This document shows, in pieces, positions 4,164 through 55,610 of a stretch of 55,610 nucleotides of DNA. Both the position numbers and the translations under genes were made by a program. Source of the DNA: an uncultured archaeon (GTDB taxonomy: Archaea > Asgardarchaeota > Lokiarchaeia > Sigyniarchaeales > SOKP01); contig CAZWEM010000026.1 of NCBI GenBank assembly GCA_964632315.1, positions 1-55,610 of the forward strand. Direction: 5' to 3'. Positions within the stretch are counted from its first letter, which is position 1, and each line of letters starts with the position of its first letter. The notes under the pieces were generated by a model, which had not been told where the DNA came from, did not search any database, and saw only the letters and a program-made list of their open reading frames with translations.

Positions 4164-4682
4164 ATGTTGGATATAAATTCGGGAATTATAGATGACGATG
4201 ATTCATTTTTTAATCAGCGCTTAAGCATCAAGAAAAGATATACTAATCGTGAAATTTTACTTCATCATTATTTTTATGAAAGGTGCAAACTATATCCGAA
4301 AAATATCATCATAATCAATAATTTTGTATTCTTCTTCATAGAAAATCAACATTATTTTAATGCTAAGGATTTTCTTCCATTAATGAGAAGACAAATGCAA
4401 AATAGGAAATTATTAATTATTCGTGATGAAAATACTCTTATCAGGCTACTTTATAATTTTTTTCCTGATCCGTATGTACATGATATAAGAGTTTATCGAA
4501 ATATTTACGCTGGTAGAATAGATATCGTTGTAGGTTTTCTAAGTTTTGTTGATAGAGGAATTGCAATTGGTTGTAAGGGGAAATATATAAAAGCAGTAAA
4601 TATTTTATTTAAAAAATATGTAATTTTTGATAAGGATGATGGTTTTCGTGTAAATATTAAATGTGAAGTGATCAAACTTTAA
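4164..4682 (+). CDS. Divergent NusA-like KH-domain protein
   Basis: DRGIAIGCKGKYIKAV resembles the archaeal NusA second KH motif (dkg.AIGkgG.nik); the first KH motif is degenerate. Confidence 0.6.
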   Translation: MLDINSGIIDDDDSFFNQRLSIKKRYTNREILLHHYFYERCKLYPKNIIIINNFVFFFIENQHYFNAKDFLPLMRRQMQNRKLLIIRDENTLIRLLYNFFPDPYVHDIRVYRNIYAGRIDIVVGFLSFVDRGIAIGCKGKYIKAVNILFKKYVIFDKDDGFRVNIKCEVIKL

Positions 4683-14527: not shown

Positions 14528-14670
14528 TGCAGGAGGTGGGATTTTCAAACCGTATCGACGTGATACGCGTCTTTGAACCCACGAACTTAGGTCGAGACCT
14601 TAAGGTCCTCGATGACCTATGTCACTAGAGCCTCAGTCTAGCGCCGTAGACCACGCTTGGCTACCCCTGC
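14528..14670 (-). tRNA. tRNA-Leu(GAG) with two introns (14586-14613 in the variable arm; 14542-14571 in the T-loop, 59/60)
   Basis: Hand-folded: acceptor GCAGGGG/CTCCTGC, anticodon arm CTAGA-CTGAGGC-TCTAG. BHB-rule cuts restore variable arm TGACATAGGTCTTC and T-arm GTGGGTTCAAATCCCAC. Confidence 0.92.
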
Positions 14671-16185: not shown

Positions 16186-16287
16186 AGCCTCTGGGGGGAA
16201 TTGAACCCCCGACCGATTCATCTGAGTGAATGACCTATTCTCTCATTTGATTACGAATCAATCGCTATACCGCTAAGCCACAGAGGC
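16186..16287 (-). tRNA. tRNA-Thr(CGT) with a 30-nt intron at 42/43 (16217-16246)
   Basis: Acceptor GCCTCTG/CAGAGGC with U73. Removing the intron gives anticodon stem ATTGA/TCAAT, variable loop CGGTC and T-arm GGGGG-TTCAATT-CCCCC. Confidence 0.9.
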
Positions 16288-17497: not shown

Positions 17498-17596
17498 GGG
17501 CCATTAGCGCAGGCAGGTAGCGCAGCAGGCTTTTAACCTGAAACTTGTAAATGGATACAAGCAGGAAGGTCGTGGGTTCAATTCCCACATGGCCCG
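17498..17596 (+). tRNA. tRNA-Lys(TTT) with a 25-nt intron at 44/45 (17543-17567)
   Basis: Acceptor GGGCCAT/ATGGCCC; BHB with CCTG/CAGG central helix, AAA and AAG bulges and inner hairpin CTTGTA/TACAAG. Confidence 0.92.
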
Positions 17597-38321: not shown

Positions 38322-39362
38322 TTGGACGTGATAATAATAAACCCAAATGATATTGACTTTTATTCCTTAGGTTTCAATGTTATAGAAACCAAAACTATGT
38401 TTGTAGCTGATTTTAATGATGGTAAATGGAGTGAGGGAAAGTTAATCCCTTATGGAGATTTTAAAATTTCTCCTGCTGCTTGTATATTAAATTATGGACA
38501 AGGAATTTTTGAAGGAATGAAAGCTCTTAGGGCTAAAAATGGTGAGATTACTTTATTTCGCCCCAAGGAGAATGCAAGGAGATTTAACGATAGTGCCGAT
38601 AGGTTATTAATGCCAAACTATGAGGAAAATAAATTTATTGATGCTATAAAGAAAGTTGTTTTAGCAAATGAAGATTATATACCCCCATATGATAGTGGAG
38701 GTGCTCTTTACATTCGCCCTCTAATGATAGGGAGCGGTCCTATATTGGGAGTAAAACCTGCTTTAGAATATAAATTAATAATATTCACTGTTCCCGTAGG
38801 ACCTTATTTTCCCGAAGGTTTTAAAGGGATCGATCTCCAAATTTCGAAAAAGTACACGAGGGCTGCTCCTGGTGGTACTGGAGCTGCAAAAACGTGTTGT
38901 AACTATGCGGGATCAATGCTTCCTGCAAAAGAAGCTAAAGCTAAGGGTTTCTCACAAACAATATACTTAGATGCCGTAAAAAGAGAATTTATTGAAGAAG
39001 TGGGAGCAGCTAATTTTTTTGCTGTGATTAATGGGAATCTAATTACTCCCAAAACTGAAGGAACAATATTACCGGGAATTACGAGGAAGTCAATATTGGA
39101 ATTAGCATCTGAAAAGTTAGGAATTCTTGTAGAAGAGAGAGACATCTCTTATAAGGAAGTGTTTGAGAATAGCTGTTCCGAAGCCTTTTGTTCAGGAACT
39201 GCCGCCGTAATTACTCCAATAAGATCTATTGCATTAGAGGATAAAAAGAGAGTGTTTAGTAAGGGAGAACCTGGTGAAATCACGAGAAAATTATATGAAT
39301 TACTCACTGGGATCCAAAGGCTAGAGATTGATGACGAATTTGACTGGATCGTAAAAGTCTAA
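38322..39362 (+). CDS. ilvE: Branched-chain amino acid aminotransferase
   Basis: YGQGIFEGMKA, LFRP, LYIRP, AK..NYA, EEVGAAN, ILPGITR and GTAAVI. Confidence 0.93.
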   Translation: MDVIIINPNDIDFYSLGFNVIETKTMFVADFNDGKWSEGKLIPYGDFKISPAACILNYGQGIFEGMKALRAKNGEITLFRPKENARRFNDSADRLLMPNYEENKFIDAIKKVVLANEDYIPPYDSGGALYIRPLMIGSGPILGVKPALEYKLIIFTVPVGPYFPEGFKGIDLQISKKYTRAAPGGTGAAKTCCNYAGSMLPAKEAKAKGFSQTIYLDAVKREFIEEVGAANFFAVINGNLITPKTEGTILPGITRKSILELASEKLGILVEERDISYKEVFENSCSEAFCSGTAAVITPIRSIALEDKKRVFSKGEPGEITRKLYELLTGIQRLEIDDEFDWIVKV

Positions 39363-39443
39363 ATAAGTTTGAAGTAATTCTACTATTTATAAAACTCAAA
39401 GGATTAACCAAAATTACTAAGAAAAGATTTAATCCTATATAGT

Positions 39444-39962
39444 CTAAACTTTTAAATTTGTAAGCATATCAATTAAGGAATGAAATACTTCTTTTATGTT
39501 ATATCCCGTTTTTGATGATATCTTCATATATCGTAGAAGGTTGTTTGATTTTATTAAAGAAATTAGATATTGATCCAGATTTGATTCAAGTTTATTTTCA
39601 AGCAAATCATATTTTGTACCTAGAATCATAATTGGCATATTTGATAATTTCTTCAACCTTTCCAGCCAATTTACAACATTCTCTATTGTTGAGGCTCTTG
39701 TTAAGTCAAATAATAAAAAAGCAGCTATTGAACCGTCAACAAATCCATCTAGAAGGCTTTTAAATTGATCTTGACCAGCAAAATCCCACATTACGAAGTT
39801 TATGTCAGTCCCATTAATTTGAATGTTTTTTGAAAAAAAATCTATTCCTTTTGTCAGTTCACTCTTCATATCAAAATTATCATGCACCAATCTGTTAAGA
39901 AATGATGTCTTACCAACACCTCCATCTCCAGCAACTACGATCTTAACTGTTTTTTCTGCCAT
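39444..39962 (-). CDS. Rab-like small GTPase
   Basis: GDGGVGKT, TKGIDF, WDFAGQ, TKYD and SSKTG. Confidence 0.88.
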   Translation of the reverse strand: MAEKTVKIVVAGDGGVGKTSFLNRLVHDNFDMKSELTKGIDFFSKNIQINGTDINFVMWDFAGQDQFKSLLDGFVDGSIAAFLLFDLTRASTIENVVNWLERLKKLSNMPIMILGTKYDLLENKLESNLDQYLISLIKSNNLLRYMKISSKTGYNIKEVFHSLIDMLTNLKV

Positions 39963-40112
39963 AACTTCTTTTAGGACGCTTTTGATTTAAATTTCTATAA
40001 TTTAGGTTTATTTTTGTAATATGAGAACAAAAAAAAATTTTTCTAAAAAAAGCAAATAAATTAAAAAATTAGATAAAATATAAGGATGTATTTTATTCAA
40101 AGAGTTTAAATT

Positions 40113-40616
40113 ATGGTTATTTCTGTAGCTATTGTTGGAGACACTCATGCGTTAAATTTTAACCAAATTCCTTTAAAATTAATTGAAATTGTAGAACAAG
40201 CAGATTGGATAATTCATACTGGAGATTTTATTAATCTTAATGTTCTAGATGGATTTTTGCAGATAAAGAATACAGAGTTCATTGGAGTTTGTGGGAATGC
40301 TGATACGTTAGACGTAGTAAACCAGTTAAATAAAGTCGAAATGATTACGATTCAAGGAACAAAAATAGGAATAACTCATCCTTTTAGAGGAGGTCCAGAT
40401 CATCTTACAAAAAAATACGTTTTCAATATCTTTCGAGGAAAAAAGCTGGACATAATTATACATGGTCATACCCATGAGATATGTGTAGAAAAAATCGGAA
40501 ATAAAATTATAATTAATCCTGGTAAAGCTTATATCGACGATTCTTCAGCTTGGTTGATATTATTATATTTAAACTATAAACCTAAAATTAAGATCTTTGA
40601 ATTTAAGCCTTCTTAA
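40113..40616 (+). CDS. YfcE/Vps29-like metallophosphoesterase
   Basis: GDTH, HTGD, GNAD, HGHTH and NPG. Confidence 0.85.
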   Translation: MVISVAIVGDTHALNFNQIPLKLIEIVEQADWIIHTGDFINLNVLDGFLQIKNTEFIGVCGNADTLDVVNQLNKVEMITIQGTKIGITHPFRGGPDHLTKKYVFNIFRGKKLDIIIHGHTHEICVEKIGNKIIINPGKAYIDDSSAWLILLYLNYKPKIKIFEFKPS

Positions 40617-41037
40617 TTTTACTAAATGATTTTTTGTAATTTTGAGGCGTTCCACCTGATTGTAGATGATTAATGTATACTTTTAGACTTTTTAAGAATA
40701 GATCAGCAGCCATATCAAGAACATCTCTTTGTTCTTCTAATTTAAACTCTGTCCAAATAGTTACTTCCGATCTCTTTTCTTTTGGACTAAAGAGATATCC
40801 AATCTTTTCCATTGGACTTCCTTCCTGTTTAGATGTCATTCTCTCGTAAGGGATGTTTTCAATTTCGATATTCGTTACTTCTCCCACATTAGTGTTCAAG
40901 AAATATTTTTTAGGGCCTAACTGTTCAATTTTATTAACGACGATATTCCAAACTGGAAGGCTCATATAATCATTTAATATATCATATATTTTTTCAATTG
41001 GAGCGTCTAAAATAATTTTTTTTTCTAAACGGGGCAT
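40603..41037 (-). CDS. SRPBCC/START-fold protein
   Basis: I.IDAPIEKIY..L.D...P.W N-terminal pattern. Confidence 0.7.
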   Translation of the reverse strand: MPRLEKKIILDAPIEKIYDILNDYMSLPVWNIVVNKIEQLGPKKYFLNTNVGEVTNIEIENIPYERMTSKQEGSPMEKIGYLFSPKEKRSEVTIWTEFKLEEQRDVLDMAADLFLKSLKVYINHLQSGGTPQNYKKSFSKIKKA

Positions 41038-41083
41038 TCTTCATCATGTAAAGTTATTCTATTTAATAAAATTTTTGATTATC

Positions 41084-42454
41084 TTAAATGATCTCTCGCA
41101 TTTTAAAAATTTTTCGTTTAATTTTTTTGATGCGAGGATCTGGTTCAGCATATATAATGTCATTTTCCATTATTTTAAGAGCTTTTTGATAATGATTAAT
41201 GGCTTTGATAAAATCCTTATTTTTTTCGGCTAATTCTGCGGTTTCCACCGCAAATTCTAATTCTATATTACGTTGCTTCTTTTCTAAATTAAACAACTTT
41301 CGAGCAGATTTTTTATTTTCTTCGTTACAAGAAAATTCACGAGAAAGAATTTGCGCTTTCTCATATTCTTTTTGGGCATCTAGATAATCTAATGAACGTT
41401 CTGCGATTTTTCCTTTTTTGATTAAACCTTTTATGAGCTCTTTTTGTTTATTTTCGTCTAAGATCTCCATTTGAATTCTCAATTCAGAAATATCATCCTC
41501 ACTAACTAACATTGCTGAAATTGGTTTAATTTTATCTGTTCTAATTTGAACTTTTTGATTTTTATCCTCCATATCATTCAATATGTTTTCTATTGGTTTT
41601 GAAATAATGACCTTTTTTTCGTAGAGTCGATAAATTTCAAATAAAAGGGTATTTGGGTCGATTTTTACGATTTTCTTCACCCGATTTAGGAGATTATTTA
41701 TGTAAAAAAACGGTTTCCTACTCAACAATTCTAATGTTAGATCATATATTGCCTTTTGGATTGTATTCTCATTTATTTGATCCATTACTTCTGGGGGGAT
41801 TGCATGAGCCAATGTCATAGGAAAGACTAAATCAATGTTGAAATTAGCAATAACGTGATCATGCATTCCTTTATTGTCAAATAATCCCGTTTCTCGAAGA
41901 GATTGGAATTTTTCTTCAAATTCTCCTTCAAATGATGCTATAAATTGTTCCATATTGTTTCTCATATACATTGAAGCCTTATGGTCCAGAATGATACATA
42001 CTCTAACGTAATCTCCATCTCTTAAAAGGATATTAAAATTCTCATATTGAAATTCAAAAAAAGGTGTTTTTTCTGAGGGATCATTATTTCCAGAAACCTC
42101 GTTTGACTCTGAGAATGTTATATTCGCTTGAATGAAACCACTCAAAAGATCCACATCAATACTAGAAGCAGATACTGGAGAATTTAACAGGACTAATCCA
42201 GTTTCTTTTTCCATTATTATGACATGTTTGATGTTCAAAACATCTAAAAATTTTTGCCAAATAGCTTCCTTTTCAATTTCCACACGTTTTTCATCCGAGA
42301 CTACTCTAAAAATTGTAAGATCTGACGTAGGTTCAAAACCTAAATTCTTTAAAATATTAATTAAGCATTTCTTACATGAAAGTGAATTATTTGGACAATT
42401 GTCTCTTTCATTTTGGCAATTAAAACCAAGACCATTAATAATAAAAAAACCCAT
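41084..42454 (-). CDS. Longin/roadblock-like domain protein with an N-terminal Cys cluster and C-terminal TPR-like helices
   Basis: HVIIMEKETGLVL...DVDLLSGFIQA pattern typical of Asgard longin-like domains; AEKNKDFIKAINHYQKAL TPR-like. Confidence 0.7.
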   Translation of the reverse strand: MGFFIINGLGFNCQNERDNCPNNSLSCKKCLINILKNLGFEPTSDLTIFRVVSDEKRVEIEKEAIWQKFLDVLNIKHVIIMEKETGLVLLNSPVSASSIDVDLLSGFIQANITFSESNEVSGNNDPSEKTPFFEFQYENFNILLRDGDYVRVCIILDHKASMYMRNNMEQFIASFEGEFEEKFQSLRETGLFDNKGMHDHVIANFNIDLVFPMTLAHAIPPEVMDQINENTIQKAIYDLTLELLSRKPFFYINNLLNRVKKIVKIDPNTLLFEIYRLYEKKVIISKPIENILNDMEDKNQKVQIRTDKIKPISAMLVSEDDISELRIQMEILDENKQKELIKGLIKKGKIAERSLDYLDAQKEYEKAQILSREFSCNEENKKSARKLFNLEKKQRNIELEFAVETAELAEKNKDFIKAINHYQKALKIMENDIIYAEPDPRIKKIKRKIFKMREII

Positions 42455-42661
42455 AGAAAACCCTTAAACCCTTGGTAATAGTATAATAAAATTACTGATA
42501 TATTAAATTAACATTTTAAAGCCTTCAATTAATAGAAAATCTAACAAAAAGAAAAGATGAGATTTAAATGCAATTTGAAACATAAATTCGAGTTTTTTAG
42601 AGGATTTTATATAAATTAGTTATAACAATCATATATAATTTTATTAAAATTCAGTAAATTC

Positions 42662-43498
42662 GTGGATATAATGGATGCTAAAAAGAGAAAATTTAAACTA
42701 TATCTATTAAGTACTTCAACATTTTTAACGATATTGTTTCTTATTTTGTATGGTGTATTTTGGGCCCCCATAGAATATGCTTTATTTAATATACAGGACA
42801 TTTGGTTATCAGTTATAGCAAGTGTTATTCGTATAGTAATATTAGCGATAATGAGTATTATCCTTTTTAATAAATGGTTTAAACAAGAAGCAATATTCAC
42901 CTCTGATGCTTATTTCTTGTTTGCACTTTTTTTTATGGTATTAACTGTAGGTAAGGTTTATGATCTATTCTATAATTTGATCTTGATAAGCAATCTATTC
43001 GATGATATTGTTCTTCTGTTTCTGGTTAAAATTAGATTTTTAATTATCACGATCAATATTTTACCAGTACTTTATTTAGGATTACAAGCAACTATAACTC
43101 TTGGTAGTGTATACATCAAAGAATTAACAAAGGAGCAATTTAATAAAATTAGATTATGGATTGTAATTTTATTTTTACTGTTGATTTCGATTATTATCAT
43201 TATCGCTCCTGAAATCACGTTTCTTATTCGAGTATTACCTTATCTAACTTTTGCTATTTTCATCGCTCTTGCGATCATGTTTTTATTCATGTATAAAAAC
43301 AAACATTTATCTCAAGCTAATGGGTTAATTATCGGAATAGCCTTTTTTGCTTTTATTGGAAGTAATATCTTTCGATCAATTGTCTCAGTAGATGCTATGA
43401 ATGAACCTTCTATTCTTTTAGTTATTGAGGGGTTGGATATAATTGTAAATACCATGATGTTCATTGGGTTTATTCGAAAGCCAAAATATGCGAGATGA
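42662..43498 (+). CDS. Polytopic membrane protein
   Basis: About 8 hydrophobic helices. Confidence 0.75.
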   Translation: MDIMDAKKRKFKLYLLSTSTFLTILFLILYGVFWAPIEYALFNIQDIWLSVIASVIRIVILAIMSIILFNKWFKQEAIFTSDAYFLFALFFMVLTVGKVYDLFYNLILISNLFDDIVLLFLVKIRFLIITINILPVLYLGLQATITLGSVYIKELTKEQFNKIRLWIVILFLLLISIIIIIAPEITFLIRVLPYLTFAIFIALAIMFLFMYKNKHLSQANGLIIGIAFFAFIGSNIFRSIVSVDAMNEPSILLVIEGLDIIVNTMMFIGFIRKPKYAR

Positions 43499-43512
43499 TT
43501 TAGGGAGGACTC

Positions 43513-44211
43513 ATGATCGAATTGAAATATTGGCATGGTTTATCGTTTAAATTCTTAATTTTTGGAATGGTTCAATATATCATCTTAACCTCTATTGCAA
43601 TGATCTTCTATTCTGGTGGAACACTTGCCGATCCCCTTAATCAGGGATATCACTTTTGGGGAAACTTATTTAGCGATTTGGGACGAATAATTGCAATTTC
43701 GGGCGAACCTAATACAATATCATTTATTCTCTTCACCATAACAGCACTAATTTTTGCATTCTCATTCATCCCATTCTTATTGGCATTACCTAAATTTTTC
43801 ACAGGTGGAAACTTGCGATATAAATTAATCTTAATTGGAACTGGATTTGGATTGCTATCAATAGCATCTCTCTTAGGAACCATATTAACCCCTTGGGATC
43901 GTTTCCATAATCTCCATTTAATGTTCTCAAACTTGTTTAACATTATGGGTAGTTTAGTAGTATTATTTTATGCTGTGGCCATCCTTTATAATGAGGATTA
44001 TCCTAATCTTTATGCCTATATTTATGTTATAATTTTGATTTTTGGCGTAGTTTATACTTTCACTTTGCTACTTCTACCAAAAGTGGTTTCAGTTGAAGTA
44101 ATAACTGTACAAGCAACGATGCAGAAAATTTCTCAATATTCTTTTATTTCTTGCTTTATAATTCAAGGTTATGGTGCGTTGAGCCTTGAAAAAATTAAAA
44201 GCAAATATTAA
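43513..44211 (+). CDS. DUF998-like membrane protein
   Basis: Y.GGT...GY.FW.N.FSDLG motif plus TM helices. Confidence 0.7.
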   Translation: MIELKYWHGLSFKFLIFGMVQYIILTSIAMIFYSGGTLADPLNQGYHFWGNLFSDLGRIIAISGEPNTISFILFTITALIFAFSFIPFLLALPKFFTGGNLRYKLILIGTGFGLLSIASLLGTILTPWDRFHNLHLMFSNLFNIMGSLVVLFYAVAILYNEDYPNLYAYIYVIILIFGVVYTFTLLLLPKVVSVEVITVQATMQKISQYSFISCFIIQGYGALSLEKIKSKY

Positions 44212-44267
44212 GCTCTTAATAGTGGCATTTTAAAAATCATTATTTTTTATTTTTATTGGAATCTAAC

Positions 44268-44417
44268 ATGGAGTTTTTTCCTATATCTTCTAAAGAAGAT
44301 CTAATAAAGCATTTGGACTTCATTAACAGTTTAGATCTGAAACCAAGCGAAAATGAGTATTTGAAACTATTTAAAGTGGTTGATTATCCAAAACACGACA
44401 ATTTCAAAGATTTTTAA
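44268..44417 (+). CDS. Possible small ORF or gene fragment (49 aa)
   Basis: MEFFPISSKEDLIKHLDF...KDF*; below the ORF-track cutoff and no family recognised. Confidence 0.3.
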   Translation: MEFFPISSKEDLIKHLDFINSLDLKPSENEYLKLFKVVDYPKHDNFKDF

Positions 44418-44636
44418 ATTTTGATATTTTTGAATAGGTAATAATCTAGGAAAAAGATTATAGGTGTTATCGATTCAACTATTTTCTTGTATTGTTAGTA
44501 TCAATATTTCACACATAGATATTATTCATCATCAAATTCCCCATTAATTGATTTATTCAAAAACATTATTAAGCTAATTCTCTATGATAAACTTGTACAA
44601 ATCCAAAAAACATTAATATAAGGTAGGGTTTTTTGC

Positions 44637-45948
44637 TTGAAGAGGCATTATAGAAAGTGCTTAGTATTAACGGTAGCAATATTTAATTTCTTAGTTTTTC
44701 CATCTTGTTGCTTGTCTATTCCTCAAAAGGAGTTGGGACCAAATGATTGGTATCGAGTTTATTCCAGCCCTAAAATTGATCATTGCTCTGATATGATTTT
44801 GGATCCTGCAAATAATTTATATCTTACTGGTTATGCTTTCTTTCCTCGAAATCCTCTAGATTATGATCTTAATTAAGTATGATAATGATACCGATTCATT
44901 CATTTCTAATAACTGGAACTCAAGTAGTTATGATGTTGCTTGTGAAATGGCATTAGATTCTTTAAATAATATCTATTTAGCTGGAGTATCAGGTAATTTT
45001 AATAAGACTGTTTTTACTTTGGTAAAATTTGACAATAATCTAAATTATCGATGGAATACAACATTTGGTCCTTATGTAGATAATCGATGTTATTGTATTG
45101 CAATTGATTCTCAAGATAACATTTACTTAGGCGGTAATATTCAGAAAGAAGATGGAGATTTAGAAATCTGTTTAGTAAAGTATAATTCTTCTGGAATTCT
45201 CCAATGGTATAAATTATGGTCTAACTTTACACACAATTACTGCTTTGCCTTAACAATTGATTCCTCAGATAATGTCTATCTCACCGGACGAACACGTGAT
45301 CTTCATTTTACAAGAGATGATCTCTGCCTGTTAAAATATAATAGTTCTGGTAATTTATTATGGTCGAGGTTACATGATGCTCCAACATATGAAATAGGTT
45401 TAGGAATTGCGATAGATTCTCAAGATGATGTATTTATCGTTGGTCAGACAAATTCTGATGAGCCATCGACGGGTATCGAGACTTTCCTAATTAAATATAG
45501 TAAGGATGGGGTTTTTGAATGGAGAGAAATTTTTAAAGGGGATTTTTATTGTTACTCTACTGATTTAGCAATAGATTCCAAGGATAATATCTATTTAGCT
45601 GGCGAAACTATACTTTCTACTAGTAACGGTCCAAGTATCTCCGTGATTAAATATGACAATAATGGATCCCTCCAATGGCATAGAGACTGGGGGGAACCCC
45701 ATATCGAAGACTGTAGTGCTATAGCAATAGATTCAATGAATAATATTTTTATTGCTGGAGATATTTCAGCTTATGAGTATCACGTTGAAGGAATGTTTAT
45801 CGTGAAAAATCCCCAAACCATTACGAATTCTGTTATCATAGATGCATATCCTGTTTATCTAATTTTAATGTTCATAATAATGGAAATTTTATCAATAATT
45901 TATACGATTTCCAAAAAAATACAACCATCTAATAAAAAGAAGTTCTAA
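44637..45948 (+). pseudogene. SBBP-repeat beta-propeller surface protein with Loki-CTERM-like tail, frameshifted near 44863
   Basis: Repeated IAIDS.DNIYL.G ... LIKY.S.G...W units span two overlapping ORFs; signal-like N-terminus; C-terminal IDAY + TM + KK. Confidence 0.8.
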
Positions 45949-45959
45949 AGCGAATTAAA

Positions 45960-46363
45960 ATGGAAGAATTCCCTCAATATGTAAAAAAAATTTTCCATTC
46001 TTGTTTTCACCTCATCAATTTCGAATAATTAAATCATAATCATCCAATAGTTTTTGTAATGCATTGGTAATTCTCGAAAAAGAAAATTTGTTAATAAGAG
46101 TTGTTAAAGACCGAGATCAGATCTTTATAGATTTTCAATCATTGAGTAAAAAAGGCAAGCTTAATTGGTTTTCGATCGATATTGTCAAGCAAATGATAAC
46201 GGGTAAAATAGAACCTTCTGCAGAAATGAATCCCAGAAACATTGAATTTTTAAAAAATAACCTTGATAAAATTAAACAAATTTTTTCTAAGGAAAATACA
46301 TCAGAAACTATAAAGAAATTAAAAAAATTAGAAAGTGATCGCGCAAAACGATTATTTCCATAA
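45960..46363 (+). pseudogene. Hypothetical protein with a poly-A frameshift and an in-frame TAA (46037-46039)
   Basis: Adding one A to the A8 run joins MEEFPQYVKK to NFPFLFSPHQFRIIKS*SSNSF and into ORF 46064. Confidence 0.55.
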
Positions 46364-46413
46364 TCAATTTGATTTTTTAAAAAAATTAAAATAAAATTTT
46401 TATTAATTAATCT

Positions 46414-46821
46414 TTAACTAGTCTCTACTAAAGCTAATTGATTTGTTTCCATCATATTGGTTTCATTTTGGATTGGCGTAAGCATATTTTTTATATCTCC
46501 ATCACAGGATTGAAACCTACTCTTAAGTTCTAGGAGTACTTCTCTCATTTGACATTTTCTATCATCATTCTCTTGGACTCTCACTTCACTTCTTATCCTC
46601 TTTATTGGTGAGACTTCAGTAGAGATAACTTGATTAACTCTTAATTCATTTAAAAGTTTCTTTAAAGTTTTTATTTCTATCTTTAAAAAATTAACTTCCT
46701 CTTCTAAATTAACATGATTTTCTTGATTCTTAATCTTATTATAACACGTGGGACCATATCCTAATTTGATACTTCTGGTGGCTTTCAAAACTCTCCCACA
46801 TCTTTTACACAAAACTACCAT
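46414..46821 (-). CDS. DUF6011-like zinc-binding protein with coiled coil
   Basis: CKRCGRVL...SIKLGYGPTC. Confidence 0.75.
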   Translation of the reverse strand: MVVLCKRCGRVLKATRSIKLGYGPTCYNKIKNQENHVNLEEEVNFLKIEIKTLKKLLNELRVNQVISTEVSPIKRIRSEVRVQENDDRKCQMREVLLELKSRFQSCDGDIKNMLTPIQNETNMMETNQLALVETS

Positions 46822-47015
46822 TTTTACCTCACTTTTTTATTCAGAGGGTTTTTCTTTTTCCTATTTTAATCATAATGACAATTCACTAATTTAAAATTAA
46901 GGTATTTCTCAAAAAATTTAACTCCGAGGGTAATGATACTTCTCCTTATAATACCCGTTTTTTGAGCGTAAGGATTTTATAAAAAATTTATATGTCAATT
47001 TTCTCTTTTTGAATT

Positions 47016-47552
47016 ATGGACGTTATAGGTATAGTGGGTTCTCCTCGAATAGGAGGTAATACTGATATTTTAGTGGATGAGGTGTTGGCTGGCGCTAAAG
47101 AAGCAGGTGCGTCGGTAGAAAAGGTGATTTTAAATAAGTTAGAGATAAAACCTTGTCAAGCGTGTAATAGTTGTTATAAAATGGGTTTTTGCATGCAAAA
47201 AGATGACATGGAAGATTTAATGAACAAGTTGTTAGAGAACGAGGTTTGGATATTAGGCACTCCTATCTATTGGTGGGGGCCAAGCGCTCAATTTAAAGTG
47301 TTTCTAGATCGATGGTATCAGCCAAAACATCAGGAGTTCAAGAATAAACGGGTAGTTATGGTTATTCCATTAGGAGGAGGCCATATTAGATATGCTCGCC
47401 ATACAGTTGGATTACTTAAGGATATTTTTGATTATTTAAGCATGGAATTAGTTGATATGATTCTTGCTCCAGGATTTAATAAACGTGGTGAAGTACGTAA
47501 TGATACAAGCCTCATAAATAAAGCACATGCGATTGGAAGGAGTATAATTTGA
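47016..47552 (+). CDS. Iron-sulfur flavoprotein (flavodoxin family)
   Basis: GSPR..GNT, CQACNSC....C..KDD, TPIYW and K.F.DR. Confidence 0.9.
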   Translation: MDVIGIVGSPRIGGNTDILVDEVLAGAKEAGASVEKVILNKLEIKPCQACNSCYKMGFCMQKDDMEDLMNKLLENEVWILGTPIYWWGPSAQFKVFLDRWYQPKHQEFKNKRVVMVIPLGGGHIRYARHTVGLLKDIFDYLSMELVDMILAPGFNKRGEVRNDTSLINKAHAIGRSII

Positions 47553-47676
47553 TTTGATTACAACGTAATTCATTTGATGTTGTCTTCCCGGAAATGGATA
47601 AATTTTTAAATTTTTTATCTTAATAGATTTAATCATACGATTTTGCATCTAAAACCGTCATATTCGATGGAGTTTG

Positions 47677-48216
47677 CTATGTTTTTTTAAGGAATTCTAA
47701 TATCGGATTAAAGAAGGTCGTATAAATTTCTACCAACTTTTCTAAGCTTATATTAAATGTTTTTGCAATAATCTCCTTATTAGGTAAGCTCCAAGTACTA
47801 TTAGATTCCACTAAAATTTTATTGGTCATATCTTTAATATGAGCATGAATTATTACATGGTTATCCTCGTATGAACCAACCATCCCTTCTACCATGATAT
47901 CAGTGCCAACGTAGACCGGTTTGAGATAATTTAGACTAAAATTTTGAGTCATTCCAAACTTCTTTGTATTTATCCATATCGTCCATGCGGAGATTTCATC
48001 AAGTAAAGTAGCAATAATTCCCCCATGCCCTAAACCTTCGAATCCACTATATTTTGGAGGAATAATATATGGTGAAAATACGATTCCATCAAGATTCCAA
48101 AACTGGAGTTTCAATCCAGTAGGATTTACGCAAGCGAAACAATTACCAGAATAATGATTTGGAATGGGAGGGTTATTGATGGTAAAATTCTTCAATTCTT
48201 CTGCTGTATGTGTCAT
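47677..48216 (-). CDS. PaaI-family thioesterase
   Basis: CFAC.NP.GL and HGGIIATLLDE. Confidence 0.88.
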   Translation of the reverse strand: MTHTAEELKNFTINNPPIPNHYSGNCFACVNPTGLKLQFWNLDGIVFSPYIIPPKYSGFEGLGHGGIIATLLDEISAWTIWINTKKFGMTQNFSLNYLKPVYVGTDIMVEGMVGSYEDNHVIIHAHIKDMTNKILVESNSTWSLPNKEIIAKTFNISLEKLVEIYTTFFNPILEFLKKT

Positions 48217-48441
48217 AATAACTAAATAATTTTTATAGGAATAAGATAGTAATAATTTTATAAACTCTCTGTCTATAAATTCTCAATTTTTTTCAATTGA
48301 TTGTTAAATATTGAAACGCAGCCGTCAAGATAGCTTCTTTTATGGTTATAACCACAATAATTAAATATTTGGCTTTTTGATATTGTTCATATATTTTTAA
48401 GAATTTAATCATTCTCTTATCAAATTTAATTAAGGGTTCGA

Positions 48442-49290
48442 ATGAAAATGGGTAAAATGAACATTTACAAAGAAGATTTTCCAGCTAACCCTTTAAATAA
48501 ACTAGGATATACTTTAGTCTTTAATGATGAATTTGAGGGACCTAATCTCGATCTTAATAAGTGGATCCCATATTATTTACCTCATTGGAGTTCAAGAGAA
48601 CAATCAAAAGCAAGCTATGTTTTGAAGGATGGAAAGCTGGTGCTACAGATTACAAAAAATCAACAACCATGGTGCCCTGAGTTTGATAGAGAGGTGAGAT
48701 GTTCCTCAATTCAAACCGGAGAATTTGCTGGAGACCTTGGAAGTCGATTAGGACAACATAGATTCAGTAATAATTTAATTGTTAGAGAAATTCAGGAAAA
48801 TACTAGAAAATTTACGCCACAATACGGTTATTTTGAACTTAGAGCAAAAGGACTCAATACAAGCCCAAATCACGTTGCTTTATGGATGATAGGCTACGAA
48901 GATTCCCCTGAAAAATCGTCAGAGATCGCAATCTTTGAACTCGTTGGGTCTCACACAAGTTTAGAATCCTCGGGTGTTCGATATGGTGTACATCCTTGGG
49001 GGGATTCTAATATTCAAGATGAATTCTATGAGGATTTTTTCGACATCTACACTGCTCAGTACCATCTCTATGGATTAGAATGGACTCCAGATCATTTAGA
49101 TTTTTATATCGATAATCAAAAGACTCGTACAATAAATCAATCACCTCAATACCCCATGCAATTTTTGCTTAGTATATTCGAGCATAGATTTGAAGGCGCG
49201 TGGACAGGTAAATATGATCCGAATGCTCCTTATCCAAAAACGTTCACATTAGATTACTTTCGAGCTTATCAACCTATTGAGGGTTATTAG
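48442..49290 (+). CDS. Glycoside hydrolase family 16 protein
   Basis: LVFNDEF.G, YGYFELRAK, ALWM, EIAIFE and YH.YGLEWTP. Confidence 0.85.
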   Translation: MKMGKMNIYKEDFPANPLNKLGYTLVFNDEFEGPNLDLNKWIPYYLPHWSSREQSKASYVLKDGKLVLQITKNQQPWCPEFDREVRCSSIQTGEFAGDLGSRLGQHRFSNNLIVREIQENTRKFTPQYGYFELRAKGLNTSPNHVALWMIGYEDSPEKSSEIAIFELVGSHTSLESSGVRYGVHPWGDSNIQDEFYEDFFDIYTAQYHLYGLEWTPDHLDFYIDNQKTRTINQSPQYPMQFLLSIFEHRFEGAWTGKYDPNAPYPKTFTLDYFRAYQPIEGY

Positions 49291-49343
49291 AAGTAATAAT
49301 ATTGGTATAAGGTTATTTAAAGGTTTGTTAGTATAGCATAAAT

Positions 49344-49943
49344 TTACGTACAAACATAATTAAACCGAATTAATTTCCATTTTTTAAATGCCATTTGATA
49401 TTCAATTTCCATAATGCCACATGTATCTACTTGAAATTCCCATCGTCGATACACCGGAATCTCAAATATGTAACACATTAACAATCGAATTAGTCCATCA
49501 TGGCTAACTATAATTAAATCCTCATTGGATAGTTGCTTATCCTTGAAAAATGACTCGATCCGTTTTCGGGCTTCTTCTCCACTCTCTCCTTCAGGAAATT
49601 GAAAATCACTATCCCTCTCTTGAAAAGCTCTCCAAACTTCAGGATAACGTTGCTGTAATGTTTTTTCTGACATTCCTTCAATTAACCCATTATCAATTTC
49701 GTTTAGACGACTATCAATAATAGGTGATAGCTCCATTTTTTCAGCGATATATTTTATTGTTTGTTCAGTTCGTATGTACTCACTGATATAAATTCGATCA
49801 ATTGACTTATCTGAGAAGTATGAAAATAATTTCCGTGCTCTTAAAAGTCCTTTCTCACTTATTGGTGGATCTTGATGCTTTAACTTAGGGTTATAGAAGT
49901 CCCCTTCCTCTTTATCACTATGCCGAATGATGTACCATTTCAT
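49344..49943 (-). CDS. Histidine phosphatase family protein
   Basis: IIRHS, S.Y.RT.QT, RLNEID.G, PEGES and VSHDG. Confidence 0.88.
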   Translation of the reverse strand: MKWYIIRHSDKEEGDFYNPKLKHQDPPISEKGLLRARKLFSYFSDKSIDRIYISEYIRTEQTIKYIAEKMELSPIIDSRLNEIDNGLIEGMSEKTLQQRYPEVWRAFQERDSDFQFPEGESGEEARKRIESFFKDKQLSNEDLIIVSHDGLIRLLMCYIFEIPVYRRWEFQVDTCGIMEIEYQMAFKKWKLIRFNYVCT

Positions 49944-50161
49944 ATTAAAACCTAATTTTTATTTATTCATCAAGTAATATCCAATAAATTCCTTAAATCT
50001 GTCAAAATATAATTAAACAATCGTTAAGTAATTTTCATGATGAATGATAATGACTTTCACATACATAGAAATTCACATTAAATAAAAAGAAGGAAAATAT
50101 AGTTCTGAAGCGAATCTGGAACAAGGATTAAAATAAATAATTTCTGATAAAAAGGCTAAAA

Positions 50162-51553
50162 TTATTGTAATTCTAAAATCCTCCCCCAGCAAGGGTACAA
50201 CTCAGAAATCCGTAATTGATTGTTTTTAACATGAAATTCTTTCTCTCCTCCTTGTTCTAATAACTCTACAAATTTAAAACCGTCCAAATTTTGATTCCAT
50301 AAGGGGATTATCTTCTCAGTTTGTTCTAGGTTAGTGCTTATTATGATTAATAATGTCTGCTTTGTAGAACGTCTTATAAATGCTAAGAGGTCATTATCAG
50401 CAAAGATAGGTGTGAGATCTCCGTAGATCAACGCATGATTATCTTTTCTCATCTGTATGAACTTTTGGATATTTCTAAAAAGATCACTACCCATTGAAGG
50501 CCACTCGCTAAAGGATTTTGGCATTGGTCCTCGTATTCCATCATCGGAATCCCCCGTTTTAGTTCCCTTGAGACCAATTTCATCGCCGTAATATACTTTA
50601 GGAATACCATTAGTGGTAAAGAGAAATAAAAAGGCAGGAAAGATATACTTATCATCTTTTAAAATGGACCGAATCCTCGTGCAATCATGATTCCCTAAAA
50701 AATTAATTAAGGTGATATTTTTATACAAACCCCATTCTGGATGAAATGATCTCTCTAAAATAGATTTTAGTTCGTACAGATTATTATTATTTATTGCACT
50801 CCAAATTGATTTATAAACTTGGTACCCAGTCCCAGCATCTAATAATTCTGGACCAATCCATTTATCATAAGGTCCATGAATCATTTCTCCAATTAAAAAA
50901 CAATTAGGATTTGCCTTTTTACATACTTGCCTGAATTCTCGCCAGAAACTTGGATCAATAAGATATGCTACATCTAGACGCCAGCCATCTATACCAATTT
51001 CTTCTAACCAATATTTACTAATTGAAAAAAGATATTCCCTAACTTCCTGTTCATTTAAGTTTAATCTTACAAGATCATAATGCCCTTCCCAATTTTGATA
51101 GTCAAAGCCATCATTATAAGGATTATCTCTTGAAAAATCTACAAAATGCCAATGCTTTCGGCTGGATTTTTCTCTATAGGCTTTAATGTCTTTAAAAGAG
51201 GCAAATTCTCTGCTAACATGATTGAAAACACCATCAAGCAATATTCTGATATTCATATCGTGAAGCTCAGACACGATTTGTCTGAACAAATCGTTAGTTC
51301 CTAAACGATGATCTATTTTCATATAATCTATCGTATCATATCCATGAGAGACTGACTCAAATAAAGGACCAAATTGAATCACGTTTATTCCTAACTTTTT
51401 GAAGTGATCATAAAAATTTCTAATTTCTGCTAACCGATTAATCTCACCTTTTTCATCCTTACCACATTTAGGAGCTCCGAAAAAGCCTAAAGGATATACA
51501 TGATATATAATAGAGGTCTTTGCCCAGTTAGGAATATAATTTACTCCTTCCAT
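50162..51553 (-). CDS. GH13 alpha-amylase/cyclomaltodextrinase-like enzyme
   Basis: HGYDT.DY, DGVFNH, DGWRLDVA, GEMIHG, NHD and YYGDE. Confidence 0.92.
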   Translation of the reverse strand: MEGVNYIPNWAKTSIIYHVYPLGFFGAPKCGKDEKGEINRLAEIRNFYDHFKKLGINVIQFGPLFESVSHGYDTIDYMKIDHRLGTNDLFRQIVSELHDMNIRILLDGVFNHVSREFASFKDIKAYREKSSRKHWHFVDFSRDNPYNDGFDYQNWEGHYDLVRLNLNEQEVREYLFSISKYWLEEIGIDGWRLDVAYLIDPSFWREFRQVCKKANPNCFLIGEMIHGPYDKWIGPELLDAGTGYQVYKSIWSAINNNNLYELKSILERSFHPEWGLYKNITLINFLGNHDCTRIRSILKDDKYIFPAFLFLFTTNGIPKVYYGDEIGLKGTKTGDSDDGIRGPMPKSFSEWPSMGSDLFRNIQKFIQMRKDNHALIYGDLTPIFADNDLLAFIRRSTKQTLLIIISTNLEQTEKIIPLWNQNLDGFKFVELLEQGGEKEFHVKNNQLRISELYPCWGRILELQ

Positions 51554-51714
51554 TTCTTAGTTAAATTGTCCTAATTAATCAATTTTAGCAAATTAGATAG
51601 TCGAATTTCTTCTTTTATTTATTCTTGAAATATAAAGCACTACATGAAAAAGCAAAAGCTTTGAAACTAACTCTTAGATAGAGTTGTCCAGGAAAAAAAT
51701 TAATTCCTTCTTTT

Positions 51715-52008
51715 TTAGATTTCATTTAGTAAGTGTCGTACTCGGTTAATGCTTATTTCTCTCTCTTTCAAACTAGGTTTTTAAGTGCTTTCAATGGTTA
51801 AGTTTCCCGAATAATGTATCTCCTTTAATTTTTCAAAAATCGGTATAAATTTATTACAAATTTTTTTGAGTTTCTTTTCGTAGAGACTTATTGGAAAGCT
51901 TAATCCTATGCCAAGTTCTGCATAATCATACCCTAAAGATTTAAAAGTTCGTAATTTGGAGCTTATATTTTGATTAAAATTCAAAGAAGCCCCAATCTTT
52001 GAGTTCAT
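51715..52008 (-). pseudogene. Internally deleted sugar phosphate isomerase/epimerase (AP endonuclease 2 TIM barrel) remnant
   Basis: N-terminal LGYDYAEL joined directly to C-terminal IFEKLKEIHYSGNLTIE; the frame continues past TAA (51781-51783) as KPSLKEREISINRVRHLLNEI*. Confidence 0.6.
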
Positions 52009-52185
52009 ATCTTTTAGAATTATTTTGATATATAAGAAGTTTTCTTAAAGGATTTTTTTTTAACTAGCCTTTTATGGAAAAATAATCTAAAATATTATAT
52101 TCAAATCAACTTGTATTAGGTTATTTTTGAAAATAAGGAAGGAAATTACTTAGCTCAAGTTTTAAGTTTAAAAAAATACAAGAGG

Positions 52186-52263
52186 AAAGTTCTTGGAACA
52201 TACTCCTTTTTAGTCTTTATCTAACTTTTTTCAAACCTCAGGACTATGACCCCTGAATCTTCT
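52186..52263 (-). repeat. Distal copy of the 23S rRNA 3'-trailer repeat
   Basis: aaagttcttggaacatactcctttttagtct...tttcaaacctca...ccctgaatcttct. Confidence 0.9.
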
Positions 52264-52292
52264 AATATTTTCTCAACATTAAAAAGTAAGAT

Positions 52293-53747
52293 TTAGTCAG
52301 GTGTTAAATTTAATTTAAAATAGTGGATATCTGCATTTTTAATCTCTTTAAATGTAATCACTTGGGCAACATCCATAATACTTATATATCTCCTTGAGGG
52401 ACAAATTACCATTCCAAGAAAGGGAAGAAATGTGAATTTCTTTTTTGGACCATATTTAGCCAGTTTATTTATCAAGGAGTCTAAATTTTTAGTTAATTGC
52501 TTAAAATTCATCTCGATCAATTTGTATAGTTCTATATAGGACTTTACACTAAGATGTACAGGTTCTTGACTTATATCTATACCGATTTTAAAATATTGAG
52601 TCTTTATATAATCCTGAATCCATTTATTTAACTTGGAAAAGATTACTGCTCTAAGATTTGCTCTTGAAAGGAGATCCATAATTAATTCAATCTGTTGCTT
52701 TGAAAATAATCCTAGATTCATTCCGAAATGGAATAATTGCTCATTTGGTATTTTTTTTTTAAATCGCTTAAAAAAGTTAAATATTGAAAATGCAAAAGTT
52801 AAATTCTTATGAGTTAGTCTATCTGCCATTGAAAATGTTGGAGCACCAGATTTGGGATGAGAATGGTACCAACCAACTAACTCATATTCTATATTCTTAT
52901 GTCTAGATAATAAATTAATGAAATCTTCACTCGAAATTTGAGCCATCGTTGTTGAACCTTTACCAATGGGGAAATATTCATTGATTTCAATAATTGTTCC
53001 ATCAGATTTTCGCTCACCTATTAAAATTCCAACACATTCTTTTTCTTCAGATTCTCTCACCGTTTCTGAGATTTTTGTGAGTGTAATTCTTCCAATATTT
53101 ATTTCACCTCTACGAGTTACTTCAACTCTTTCTTTTTTATTGGTATAAATATCCATTATGGGAATGCTCTCTAAGTATGAGCAATCTCGTAAATATAAAA
53201 AATGTTTTAGAAGTAGATCCCTAAAACACCCAGAATAATTGATCAACTCATGAAAATTATCTGATCCACCATATTCAATACTTCCAAACCAGAGAGATAA
53301 ATCTTGTATTAATGATTTTCTTGAAAATAACTGAATATTTTCATACAGCTTTTTTCCACAATAATTTTTTTTTAAAAAATCTTTAAACTTTTCATCTTGT
53401 CTCATATCGAGTTGCGATTCAATGACCATTCTCACAGAGTTTTTTATAATTGTTGGATCTAATTCAATCCATCCTGATTCTTCTAAAAAATGAAATTGTT
53501 TAATTTGTAATTGTAATTCGGGAGATTTATCTTGGAAATCATCATATTTAACTGGTAGATCGAAATTTAAAATGTCTGATTCGATATGTTGATAATCACT
53601 TAAATCTAACGACATGCTTCCAAATTCTTTCACCAAATTACATTCATGAACGACTTTATCTAAATGTAACGCACAATAATTCTCAGCACATTCAACGCAA
53701 AGAAATGTTTCACTTACTTCTCTACCACAATGATAACAGACAGGCAA
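52293..53747 (-). CDS. AN1-type zinc finger plus JAB/MPN+ (JAMM) metalloisopeptidase
   Basis: CYHC...CVEC...YCALH...HEC; ECVGILIG and VGWYHSHP...FSMAD. Confidence 0.85.
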   Translation of the reverse strand: MPVCYHCGREVSETFLCVECAENYCALHLDKVVHECNLVKEFGSMSLDLSDYQHIESDILNFDLPVKYDDFQDKSPELQLQIKQFHFLEESGWIELDPTIIKNSVRMVIESQLDMRQDEKFKDFLKKNYCGKKLYENIQLFSRKSLIQDLSLWFGSIEYGGSDNFHELINYSGCFRDLLLKHFLYLRDCSYLESIPIMDIYTNKKERVEVTRRGEINIGRITLTKISETVRESEEKECVGILIGERKSDGTIIEINEYFPIGKGSTTMAQISSEDFINLLSRHKNIEYELVGWYHSHPKSGAPTFSMADRLTHKNLTFAFSIFNFFKRFKKKIPNEQLFHFGMNLGLFSKQQIELIMDLLSRANLRAVIFSKLNKWIQDYIKTQYFKIGIDISQEPVHLSVKSYIELYKLIEMNFKQLTKNLDSLINKLAKYGPKKKFTFLPFLGMVICPSRRYISIMDVAQVITFKEIKNADIHYFKLNLTPD

Positions 53748-53844
53748 TGTTTTTCCACTTAATCATTTCTCTTTTTGATAACATTTTTTTACATCAGTCT
53801 TTTAAAACTTATAGATTTTAAAGAAAGATTAAGAATGAAAAAGT

Positions 53845-53906
53845 AAAGTTCTTGGAACATACTCCTTTTTAGTCTCTCTCGTCATCCAATTTATTTCAAA
53901 CCTCAG
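53845..53906 (-). repeat. Middle copy of the 23S rRNA 3'-trailer repeat
   Basis: aaagttcttggaacatactcctttttagtctctctcgtcatccaatttatttcaaacctca. Confidence 0.9.
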
Positions 53907-53934
53907 TTATATAATTTGAAAAAATTGTAGGATT

Positions 53935-54708
53935 TTAAATAGTTCTTTTCTGAGAATAATCACGTTGTCGAAGAATTTCAAATCCAATTATAATTGCTGC
54001 CGAACTAAGCGGGAGAGATCCAGTAAAGTCTCGCTTATAGGGTATATTACACTGTAAATCTGCGGTCTCTAAAAAAGCATGATCAATTCCTCTTTTTTCA
54101 CCCCCAATTACTACGAATATGGGGGGTTTCAGATTACTGTCAAATATTGATTTCCCTTTATCTTTAGTAGCACAAACAATTGTAAAATTATTAGATTTGA
54201 AAAAACTAGCAGTTGTTTTTAGATCTTCAACTAATGCTATCGACATTAATTCTGAGGTACCTGCGGAAGATTTAATAATTATTGGTTCCACATCAAGCCA
54301 ATTTCTCTGTTTCATGACGATTCCATCTATTCCAGCAGTATATAATGATCGTATTGTGTAACCAAGATTATATGGGTCTTCAATTCCATCTAAAAAGAAA
54401 ATAACACTGAGTTTCGATCTCGGTAATTCATGTATTTCTTGATAGGTTCTTTCACTAACAGTAGCAGCAATACCTCCATGGGTCTTCCCCTTTGCATTTT
54501 TTTCGAACCATTTGTGATCCACTGCTTCAACCTTGATTTCTTTAGAATTTGCTGATTCAAGTATTTTCTTGAGAAATTTTGCTTGTTTAATATCCCTTTT
54601 TCTCTTTAGTTTGGCAACATCATAAAATAAAGTCAGAACCTTGCGATGTTTTGAGTTTAAAACAGCATTTATAGCAATTTTTCCCTCAATTAGAATAGAA
54701 GCTGTCAT
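53935..54708 (-). CDS. TrmH/RlmB-like SPOUT RNA 2'-O-methyltransferase
   Basis: HGGIAA, LDGIEDPYNLG..IRS, SSAG, IGGEKRGI, IPY and SL.LS.A. Confidence 0.88.
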   Translation of the reverse strand: MTASILIEGKIAINAVLNSKHRKVLTLFYDVAKLKRKRDIKQAKFLKKILESANSKEIKVEAVDHKWFEKNAKGKTHGGIAATVSERTYQEIHELPRSKLSVIFFLDGIEDPYNLGYTIRSLYTAGIDGIVMKQRNWLDVEPIIIKSSAGTSELMSIALVEDLKTTASFFKSNNFTIVCATKDKGKSIFDSNLKPPIFVVIGGEKRGIDHAFLETADLQCNIPYKRDFTGSLPLSSAAIIIGFEILRQRDYSQKRTI

Positions 54709-54831
54709 TTTCTTGATTTCCTTAGTCTTAATAACAAAAAATGATTGTTCTACTACTATTTAGTTATTTATATTTTAGAGTGTTTTCCAATCTAAATTGA
54801 AATATTCTCAAATTTTATAAATTAAAAACTA

Positions 54832-54920
54832 AAAGTCTTGGAACATACTCCTTCACGTCTTTCTCGTCATCCAACTTCTTTCAAACCTCAACACTCTGAG
54901 CCTGAACCCTTGAATCCTCT
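54832..54920 (-). repeat. Native 23S rRNA 3' trailer (probable processing-stem strand followed by a T-rich terminator)
   Basis: Lies directly 3' of the 23S gene; shares TCTTGGAACATACTCCTT and TTTCAAACCTCA with the two downstream copies; followed by T-runs on the minus strand. Confidence 0.8.
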
Positions 54921-54925
54921 TTCGT

Positions 54926-55610
<685 letters not shown>

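Follow-up and report, generated by a model that had tools for sequence, protein, structure and literature searches.

The 55,610-nt stretch of DNA analyzed here (the window) is the entire contig C26 of a 4.45-Mb, 119-contig assembly (G000) of a Loki-type (Promethearchaeia) Asgard archaeon. It terminates inside a 23S rRNA gene, downstream of which the 3' trailer of that gene is present three times (copies A, B, and C), with an RlmB/TrmH-like RNA methyltransferase gene (cassette 1) between A and B and a gene for a JAB-domain protein with an AN1-like N-terminus (AN1-JAB; cassette 2) between B and C. On balance, and with moderate confidence, we interpret the locus as the end, nearest to the 23S rRNA gene, of an additive island of accessory genes that is seated on the 3' terminus of that gene, subject to homology-driven turnover without an integrase and carrying relic trailer copies. 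Copy A, which adjoins the gene, would be the only working trailer, and copies B and C would be older trailers that were displaced or duplicated. The assembly is a metagenome-assembled genome (MAG) with an estimated contamination of 8.6%, and the genomes compared with it were all MAGs or species representatives.

The 23S trailer and its extra copies

The repeats and the gene that they follow are located as listed.

54925-55610, minus strand: 3' part of the 23S rRNA gene (Rfam RF02540, LSU_rRNA_archaea, 363.9 bits, model positions 2565-2987), truncated by the contig end
54832-54924, minus strand: copy A, the native 23S 3' trailer, directly abutting the 23S end and homologous to the trailers of 25 relatives
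54895-54901, minus strand: bulge-helix-bulge (BHB) 3' half-site, GCTC (central 4-bp strand) plus AGA (3-nt bulge), in copy A only
54836-54853, minus strand: 18-nt core of copy A, AAGGAGTATGTTCCAAGA, the outermost stem arm, followed by T4 and T5 runs
53845-53914, minus strand: copy B, trailer from +35 to its end, without the BHB half-site; core at 53850-53867, then a T5 run
52186-52274, minus strand: copy C, trailer from about +6 to its end; core at 52191-52208, then a T7 run

All three copies are direct repeats on the same strand as the 23S gene, with start-to-start spacings of 986 and 1,659 nt. The 18-mer TCTTGGAACATACTCCTT has three exact matches in the window versus 0.08 expected and TTTCAAACCTCA has three versus 0.83. 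Copies B and C have a 31-nt exact match in common (53845-53875 and 52186-52216), copies A and B the word TCTCGTCATCCAA, and the gap between stop codon and repeat measures 28 and 29 nt. An earlier note on this DNA had described the shared words, the 31-nt match, and the gaps, all of which we could reproduce, and had copy C reaching to within about 10 nt of the estimated mature rRNA end; its alignment to copy A indeed begins at about +6 of the trailer. Copy B is 88% identical to copy A over 56 nt, with a profile match spanning 53824-53914, and copy C carries deletions of 7 nt across the BHB half-site and of 6 nt further on. The core is identical at 18 of 18 positions in every pair of copies, with flanks at 64–72% identity upstream and 52–60% downstream. 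The middle parts of the three copies are far closer to one another than to the trailer of any other species, and all three therefore stem from this lineage or its very close relatives.

Genome-wide searches bore out the claim that the repeat is specific to the region downstream of the 23S gene. Allowing up to two mismatches, the 18-mer has three sites in the whole genome, all at this locus, and the 12-nt core GGAGTATGTTCC occurs three times genome-wide versus about 0.25 expected. A profile built from the three copies found no fourth copy in the assembly (next best match, E = 1.8), and a degenerate candidate at 51642-51675 was dismissed as not significant (E = 6.8).

The identity of the repeat emerged from a comparison of the window with 25 same-family 23S-downstream regions, making 26 loci. 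Trailers of the relatives are conserved where they begin (CGAAAGAGGA..TTCAGGCTTAGAG), hypervariable in the middle, and conserved again where they end, in GGAGTATGTTCC or a sequence differing little from it, after which comes a T-run. At all seven loci with a complete 23S gene, the leader carries at its 5' end a complement of this conserved trailer end, perfect or near-perfect over 9–19 nt (a perfect 19-nt pair in G008 and G019), and pairing runs along the whole length of the trailer. The arms covary, GGAGTATGTTCC occurring with GGAACATACTCC, TTGGAAGAATATATTCCTA with its own complement, and, in G015, GGGGGGTTATTCTT with AAGAATAACTCCCC. Leader–trailer cofolding predicts a canonical BHB at the same seven loci, to which the trailer contributes a 4-bp strand, GCTT or GCTC, and a 3-nt bulge. 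Because of these complements, the covariation, and the BHB in the complete loci of relatives, the 18-nt core is identified as the outermost stem arm, and the repeat unit is the 3' strand of the pre-23S leader–trailer processing stem plus an oligo-T stop. Copy A belongs to this class by its position and by its homology to the leader-pairing trailers of the complete loci, its GCTC+AGA being homologous to the GCTT+AGN of the BHB in relatives.

The BHB stem that the earlier note suspected was thus recovered by folding in the seven complete relatives, and the half-site motif has a single occurrence at the locus of this genome, in the native copy. Archaeal pre-rRNA stems with BHB motifs, and circular pre-23S, have been described (PMC12918454; preprint 10.64898/2026.03.23.713588), and copy A corresponds to the 3' strand of such a stem. 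Copies B and C differ in being extra, orphan 3' arms that lack the half-site, and arms of this kind are not mentioned where those two accounts deal with BHB stems. The same observation speaks against the idea that cargo could be released by the rRNA-processing machinery; with no BHB motif in copy B and a deletion across it in copy C, the splicing endonuclease would be offered no site even if the leader paired.

No Rfam match was obtained for the trailer region, even at E ≤ 1, and in a shuffled-sequence folding test copies A (z = 0.74) and B (z = 0.03) folded no better than shuffled sequences. Copy C was marginal (z = −2.1; 3 of 200 shuffles equaled it). A C/D-box reading of GGATGACGA, made by eye, was dropped for want of a D box and because copy C does not contain the element.

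Recurrence in relatives and proposed turnover of the arrays

Extra trailer copies are present at 8 of the 26 family loci, this window included. Within-genome BLAST with the native 23S tip and trailer detected them in G054, G014, G050, G046, G025, and G000, and in G011 and G022 they are recognizable at motif level only. The approximately 21 extra copies are all direct, all on the 23S contig, and all downstream of the 23S gene, the sole inverted matches being the leader arms; at least seven lie within 10.8 kb in G050. The core motif clusters on the 23S contig in five relatives and elsewhere is about as frequent as a reversed control pattern. Many copies in relatives take in the last 13–54 nt of the mature 23S rRNA, whereas those of the window consist of trailer only, and some extra copies in G046, G050, G025, and G014 retain the BHB half-site (GCTT+AGN).

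The genes between copies vary from genome to genome, as the earlier note had anticipated. Seven genomes have differing cargo behind the 23S gene (G000, G050, G046, G011, G054, G014, and G022), comprising LRR, TPR, and TIR proteins, a luciferase-like monooxygenase, amine oxidase, amidohydrolase, pyrF, a DUF6011 protein, and unknowns. Cargo in relatives is mostly co-oriented with the 23S gene, and in about two-thirds of cases the gene ends no more than about 50 nt before the next copy. The proposal that genes are captured one at a time describes this window but not the relatives, in which the segments between copies hold one to five genes. In this set of MAGs and species representatives, the sharing of cassettes seen between genomes was at family level only (DUF6011 proteins at 56% identity, luciferase-like proteins at 49%, and LRR/TPR proteins).

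Orphan 23S 3' tips without a 23S body were also observed, at L065:8275-8409 (G001:C95) and at L060:8206-8285 and 14101-14146 (G028:C69). On contig C101 of G054 such tips occur at L039:405-466, 2956-3069, and 4024-4170; counting a fourth that includes the trailer (L039:5877-6094), this contig has four tip copies as well as three trailer-only copies. The youngest-looking inserted segment is L048:2828-4655 of G046, which is bounded by 107 identical nt and contains two genes matching phage-protein families of unknown function, phrog_10674 (1e-95) and phrog_3136 (1e-43). A search of IMG/VR viral contigs with two core patterns gave chance matches only and no trailer-bearing virus or mobile element. 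A metagenome scan with the 16-nt core, a pattern that is too short, returned at least 119 stretches, and among the matches listed none had a trailer or a 23S end.

The ends of the copies bear on how they arose. Counted from the 23S end, left ends fall anywhere between −54 and +130, and right ends lie almost always at the core and T-run. G046 and G011 have a common flank (95% identical) whose start falls within copy 2, immediately 5' of the core, and to the left of this flank the DNA differs (5.9 vs. 2.8 kb). Copy 2 of G046 is chimeric: 107 nt match the native tip and trailer of G046 exactly (−26 to +80), after which the sequence follows the older copy; the switch point is a short stretch common to both parents, and the joint lies 10–20 nt upstream of the core. 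Such a chimera is what recombination between direct trailer copies would be expected to produce. Variable left ends, uniform right ends, and the G046/G011 joint therefore argue for homology-driven recombination over a fixed attachment (att) crossover. Of the two mechanisms put forward in the earlier note, recombination anchored on the 23S gene and trailer consequently fits better, and att-type integration sits poorly with both the left ends and the joint.

As the earlier note had remarked, there is no integrase or transposase in or near the arrays. A Pfam search of the open reading frames (ORFs) between 38 and 55 kb of the window detected no integrase, transposase, or other recombinase domain, serine recombinases not having been searched for separately. 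Tyrosine recombinases (PF00589) number two in this genome, one intact on C56 and one broken on C116; the array contigs of five relatives have none, and the whole genomes of G011, G014, and G054 have one each. The broken copy lies on a 2.6-kb contig unlinked to C26, is split into two pieces (1596-1721 and 2008-2496), and may be the remnant of a mobile element. An explanation of the TnpB type was rejected as no TnpB scored above cut-off in the assembly.

Under the additive-island interpretation, gene-bearing DNA would have recombined in at the 23S end without the involvement of a dedicated integrase. The conserved 23S tip and trailer would provide the anchor for incoming DNA, and the trailer already in place would be cut at a variable point and shifted outward, as the variable left and uniform right ends lead one to expect; copies B and C would be older trailers left behind in this way. 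The tip and trailer would likewise anchor the gain or replacement of later segments, and segments would be lost through recombination between direct trailer copies. Arrival of the AN1-JAB segment, probably the first, would have displaced copy C, and the later arrival of the RlmB-like segment copy B. Both copies would by now be out of rRNA processing, with oligo-T terminators that probably provide 3' ends for the preceding genes.

Several points weigh against this interpretation. The exact 18-nt core in copies B and C, despite 30–45% divergence of their flanks, exceeds what plain decay predicts. It may reflect the terminator context, the position of the joint, or an unseen site-specific activity, and would also accord with a site-specific core or with continuing selection. 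The proposed mechanism draws on patterns of copy ends and on one genome pair, and the model leaves the first placement of a gene beside a trailer without explanation. Neither an occupied-versus-empty site at population level nor a circular intermediate was observed, and a recombinase of unrecognised type may act in trans. Pairing of copy A with its own leader is, moreover, extrapolated from relatives, the leader of this genome being unassembled.

A site-specific process resembling that of integrons or tRNA islands, in which an enzyme encoded elsewhere (e.g., a single XerA-like protein) uses the 18-nt core as att for serial insertion of circular cassettes, strikes us as unlikely. It would account for strictly direct repeats, for a core that is exact in all three copies, for a constant right end, and for compact cassettes whose stop codon lies 28–29 nt ahead of the repeat; and relatives' copies with the last 13–54 nt of the 23S rRNA resemble the displaced gene fragments of tRNA islands. 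The highly variable left ends and the G046 joint, which falls 10–20 nt upstream of the core and not within it, are difficult to reconcile with such an enzyme. Neither the 13.9-kb region between the 23S gene and its conserved neighbors nor the array contigs of six genomes encode an integrase, transposase, or TnpB, the core as read from its sequence presents no clear inverted-repeat recombinase site, and the two patterns searched in IMG/VR recovered no vehicle bearing the trailer.

Somewhat less probable again is a role at the RNA level, in which copies in 3' untranslated regions (UTRs) pair over 18 nt with the 23S leader and couple cassette mRNAs to pre-rRNA, or read-through transcripts form alternative stems. 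The core is perfectly conserved in copies B and C, genes are co-oriented with the 23S gene and end just ahead of each copy, and some extra copies in relatives keep the BHB half-site, all of which speak for such a role. The conservation can, however, also be explained by the core being recombination-proximal and the most conserved part of every native trailer. Neither copy B nor copy C retains the half-site, which in the latter has been deleted, the folding test and Rfam search described above lend no support beyond the marginal value for copy C, RlmB-like orthologues exist in at least 13 other genomes without such an element, and the oligo-T run behind each copy disfavors long read-through.

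A shade more doubtful still is that the trailer copies constitute a working gene-capture system, operating through unrecognised recombination on the 18-nt stem arm or through the RNA-processing machinery. On either version, an archaeal platform akin to an integron would have the rRNA processing stem as its attachment site as well. The version that involves RNA would have the leader pair with read-through pre-23S transcripts or with the 3' UTRs of cassettes, and the expression or mobility of cassettes would thereby be coupled to rRNA synthesis. We give hardly any credence to a generic dispersed element (a miniature inverted-repeat transposable element or common terminator), which three copies in 4.45 Mb, all at this locus, refute, or to an assembly artefact, for which the contamination estimate and a contig ending inside an rRNA gene could be cited but to which the mutual differences of the copies, incompatible with collapsed or duplicated reads, and the same architecture in independent assemblies, including ones of about 10 contigs such as G025, are opposed.

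Genes of the proposed island and its surroundings

The genes of the array and the region beyond it are as follows.

53935-54708, minus strand: cassette 1, SpoU-class RNA 2'-O-methyltransferase, RlmB/TrmH-like, 257 aa (Pfam SpoU_methylase, 3.5e-24, and SpoU_sub_bind)
52293-53747, minus strand: cassette 2, 484 aa, Cys/His-rich (AN1-like) N-terminus and JAB/MPN metalloprotease domain (Pfam JAB, 3.2e-11; Prok-JAB, 8.3e-11)
51781-52008, minus strand: ORF of 75 aa beyond copy C, perhaps the remnant of a gene
41038-52185, no strand assigned: remainder of the variable accessory region (Pfam), without recognisable trailer copies
38322-41037, no strand assigned: conserved 23S-neighbor block of a 144-aa gene, a Ras-family GTPase gene, and a 346-aa gene, with orthologues at 57–76% identity in G047, G001, and G057

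The conserved block reveals how far the neighbors of the 23S gene have been displaced. In G047, G001, and G057 it (a 144–148-aa gene, the Ras-type GTPase, and a 344-aa gene) begins 0.3–1.1 kb past the trailer, compared with 13.9 kb from the 23S gene in this genome. The accessory region at 41038-52185 encodes an alpha-amylase, histidine phosphatase, GH16 protein, thioesterase, FMN reductase, DUF6011 protein, beta-propeller protein, and several unknowns. The amylase is patchily distributed (6 of 31 genus genomes), and it is the coding sequence alone, with no flanks, that is common to the relatives; a homologue of the DUF6011 protein (56% identity) sits in the G054 array. Each cassette gene has its own AT-rich upstream region, and every copy closes with an oligo-T run.

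Two of the three gene identities given in the earlier note, the methylase and the AN1-JAMM protein, were upheld; its decayed epimerase is unverified, the position offering only the 75-aa ORF, which has no Pfam or PHROGs match and, by tblastx, no paralogue in the genome. The best NCBIfam match of cassette 1 is RlmB (2.7e-42), under the curated cut-off. Among 31 genus genomes, 7 have the RlmB-like gene, and in none except G000 does it adjoin the 23S gene; at least 13 other genomes have orthologues without a trailer-type element. Its relatives comprise about 14 Promethearchaeota MAGs at 65–80% identity, beyond which the nearest are bacterial (Clostridia and Chloroflexota; 36–41%), a pattern that suggests an old transfer from bacteria. 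For the AN1-JAB protein no homologue was found among the 30 other genus genomes searched (1 of 31 including G000), and among 5.8 billion proteins only two relatives were found (42% and 29% identity), one with zf-AN1. An identical protein is recorded on a second contig of 35.6 kb.

We considered that the RlmB-like gene had moved from an ancestral locus, and softened this view as its distribution is patchy, with three contexts in the genus, none of which can be called ancestral. Where G060, G062, and G066 have the gene between two conserved genes, the present genome has a 410-aa membrane-protein ORF on the opposite strand (G000:C10:87870-89203), presumably similar to an MFS transporter, to judge by eye. 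In two congeners the RlmB-like gene is flanked by 25–70-nt direct repeats that correspond to the promoter and beginning of the gene that follows, at L070:1394-1464 and 2382-2453 (G067) and at L072:602-626 and 1519-1543 (G070). The spacing of these repeats is 988 nt in G067 and 917 nt in G070 versus 986 nt in this window. It is possible that insertion with a long local target duplication is general in the genus and not peculiar to the 23S trailer.

The 23S 3' domain itself takes up 686 nt for 423 model positions, with a break in similarity to relatives at approximately 55070. The variable insert near the 23S 3' end is probably expansion segment ES39, which is reportedly supersized in Asgard archaea. 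BLAST found no second 23S piece in the assembly, from which the leader is also absent. Elsewhere in the window, three tRNA matches (14528-14670, 16186-16287, and 17498-17596) are 99–143 nt long versus the usual 71–76 nt and are probably intron-bearing tRNA genes.

Relation to known islands and significance

The earlier note recognized no described system with this layout, but close analogues exist in the additive genomic islands at tRNA genes and in the hypervariable region HVR2 beside the 23S gene of SAR11. The closest described kind is the additive flexible genomic island at tRNA or tmRNA genes, as reported for Alteromonas (Lopez-Perez et al., PMC4898812). According to the portions of that account bearing on these islands, they share with the present locus a fixed hotspot by a stable RNA gene, different cassette sets in related genomes, and, downstream of each cassette, a "tell-tale" direct repeat derived from a portion of the RNA gene. 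Here, too, cassette sets differ at the same site, and behind the cassettes the adjoining RNA gene is partly repeated in direct orientation, in the form of its trailer with or without the 23S tip. The differences are that the anchor is the 23S 3' tip plus processing trailer, that the host is an Asgard archaeon, that no integrase was found, and that the repeats in this window comprise non-mature trailer only.

Integrase-mediated islands at tRNA and tmRNA genes, including tandem arrays, have been cataloged in Islander (PMC4383910). As far as that source describes them, the end of the target gene is regenerated, a displaced fragment remains at the far end, and repeated events lead to direct-repeat arrays, a layout that the arrays here resemble. 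The present arrays depart from this type in having no tyrosine integrase in or near any of them, variable left ends, and some single-gene cargo.

Integrons provide a second point of reference, with compact, co-oriented, mostly single-gene cassettes that each carry a repeat and lie behind a strong promoter-bearing platform. In contrast to integrons, no IntI was found here, the repeats are an rRNA processing arm, and the cassettes have their own AT-rich upstream region and oligo-T stop. Integron attC sites are imperfect inverted repeats that fold as a hairpin, and the trailer copies have no hairpin-type symmetry or fold, copy C again being marginal.

HVR2 of SAR11 (Grote et al. 2012, PMC3448164) is similar in being a clade-wide hypervariable region that begins directly after the 23S gene. 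It differs in containing about 50 genes and in being bounded by the 5S rRNA gene, and the description of HVR2 in that paper mentions no repeated copies of the 23S tail. For Asgard archaea, the mobile-element literature, insofar as represented by PMC8813620, places integration at tRNA genes and not at rRNA genes, and a full-text search of the literature found no description of islands at the 23S end.

These arrays indicate that the 3' end of the 23S rRNA gene, corresponding to the outer arm of the stem that closes pre-23S, is a clade-wide gene-acquisition site in Asgard archaea, where such sites were previously known at tRNA and tmRNA genes. The conserved core and T-run would give a sequence-defined marker for young accessory genes in Promethearchaeia, and the trailer arrays would help to explain assembly breaks at rRNA loci in this group. 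Orphan 23S tips and trailers should accordingly be annotated as relics, not as rRNA genes. If the additive-island interpretation is correct, the locus may serve as a model for how cassettes are gained and lost without an integrase in the lineage that stands closest to eukaryotes.

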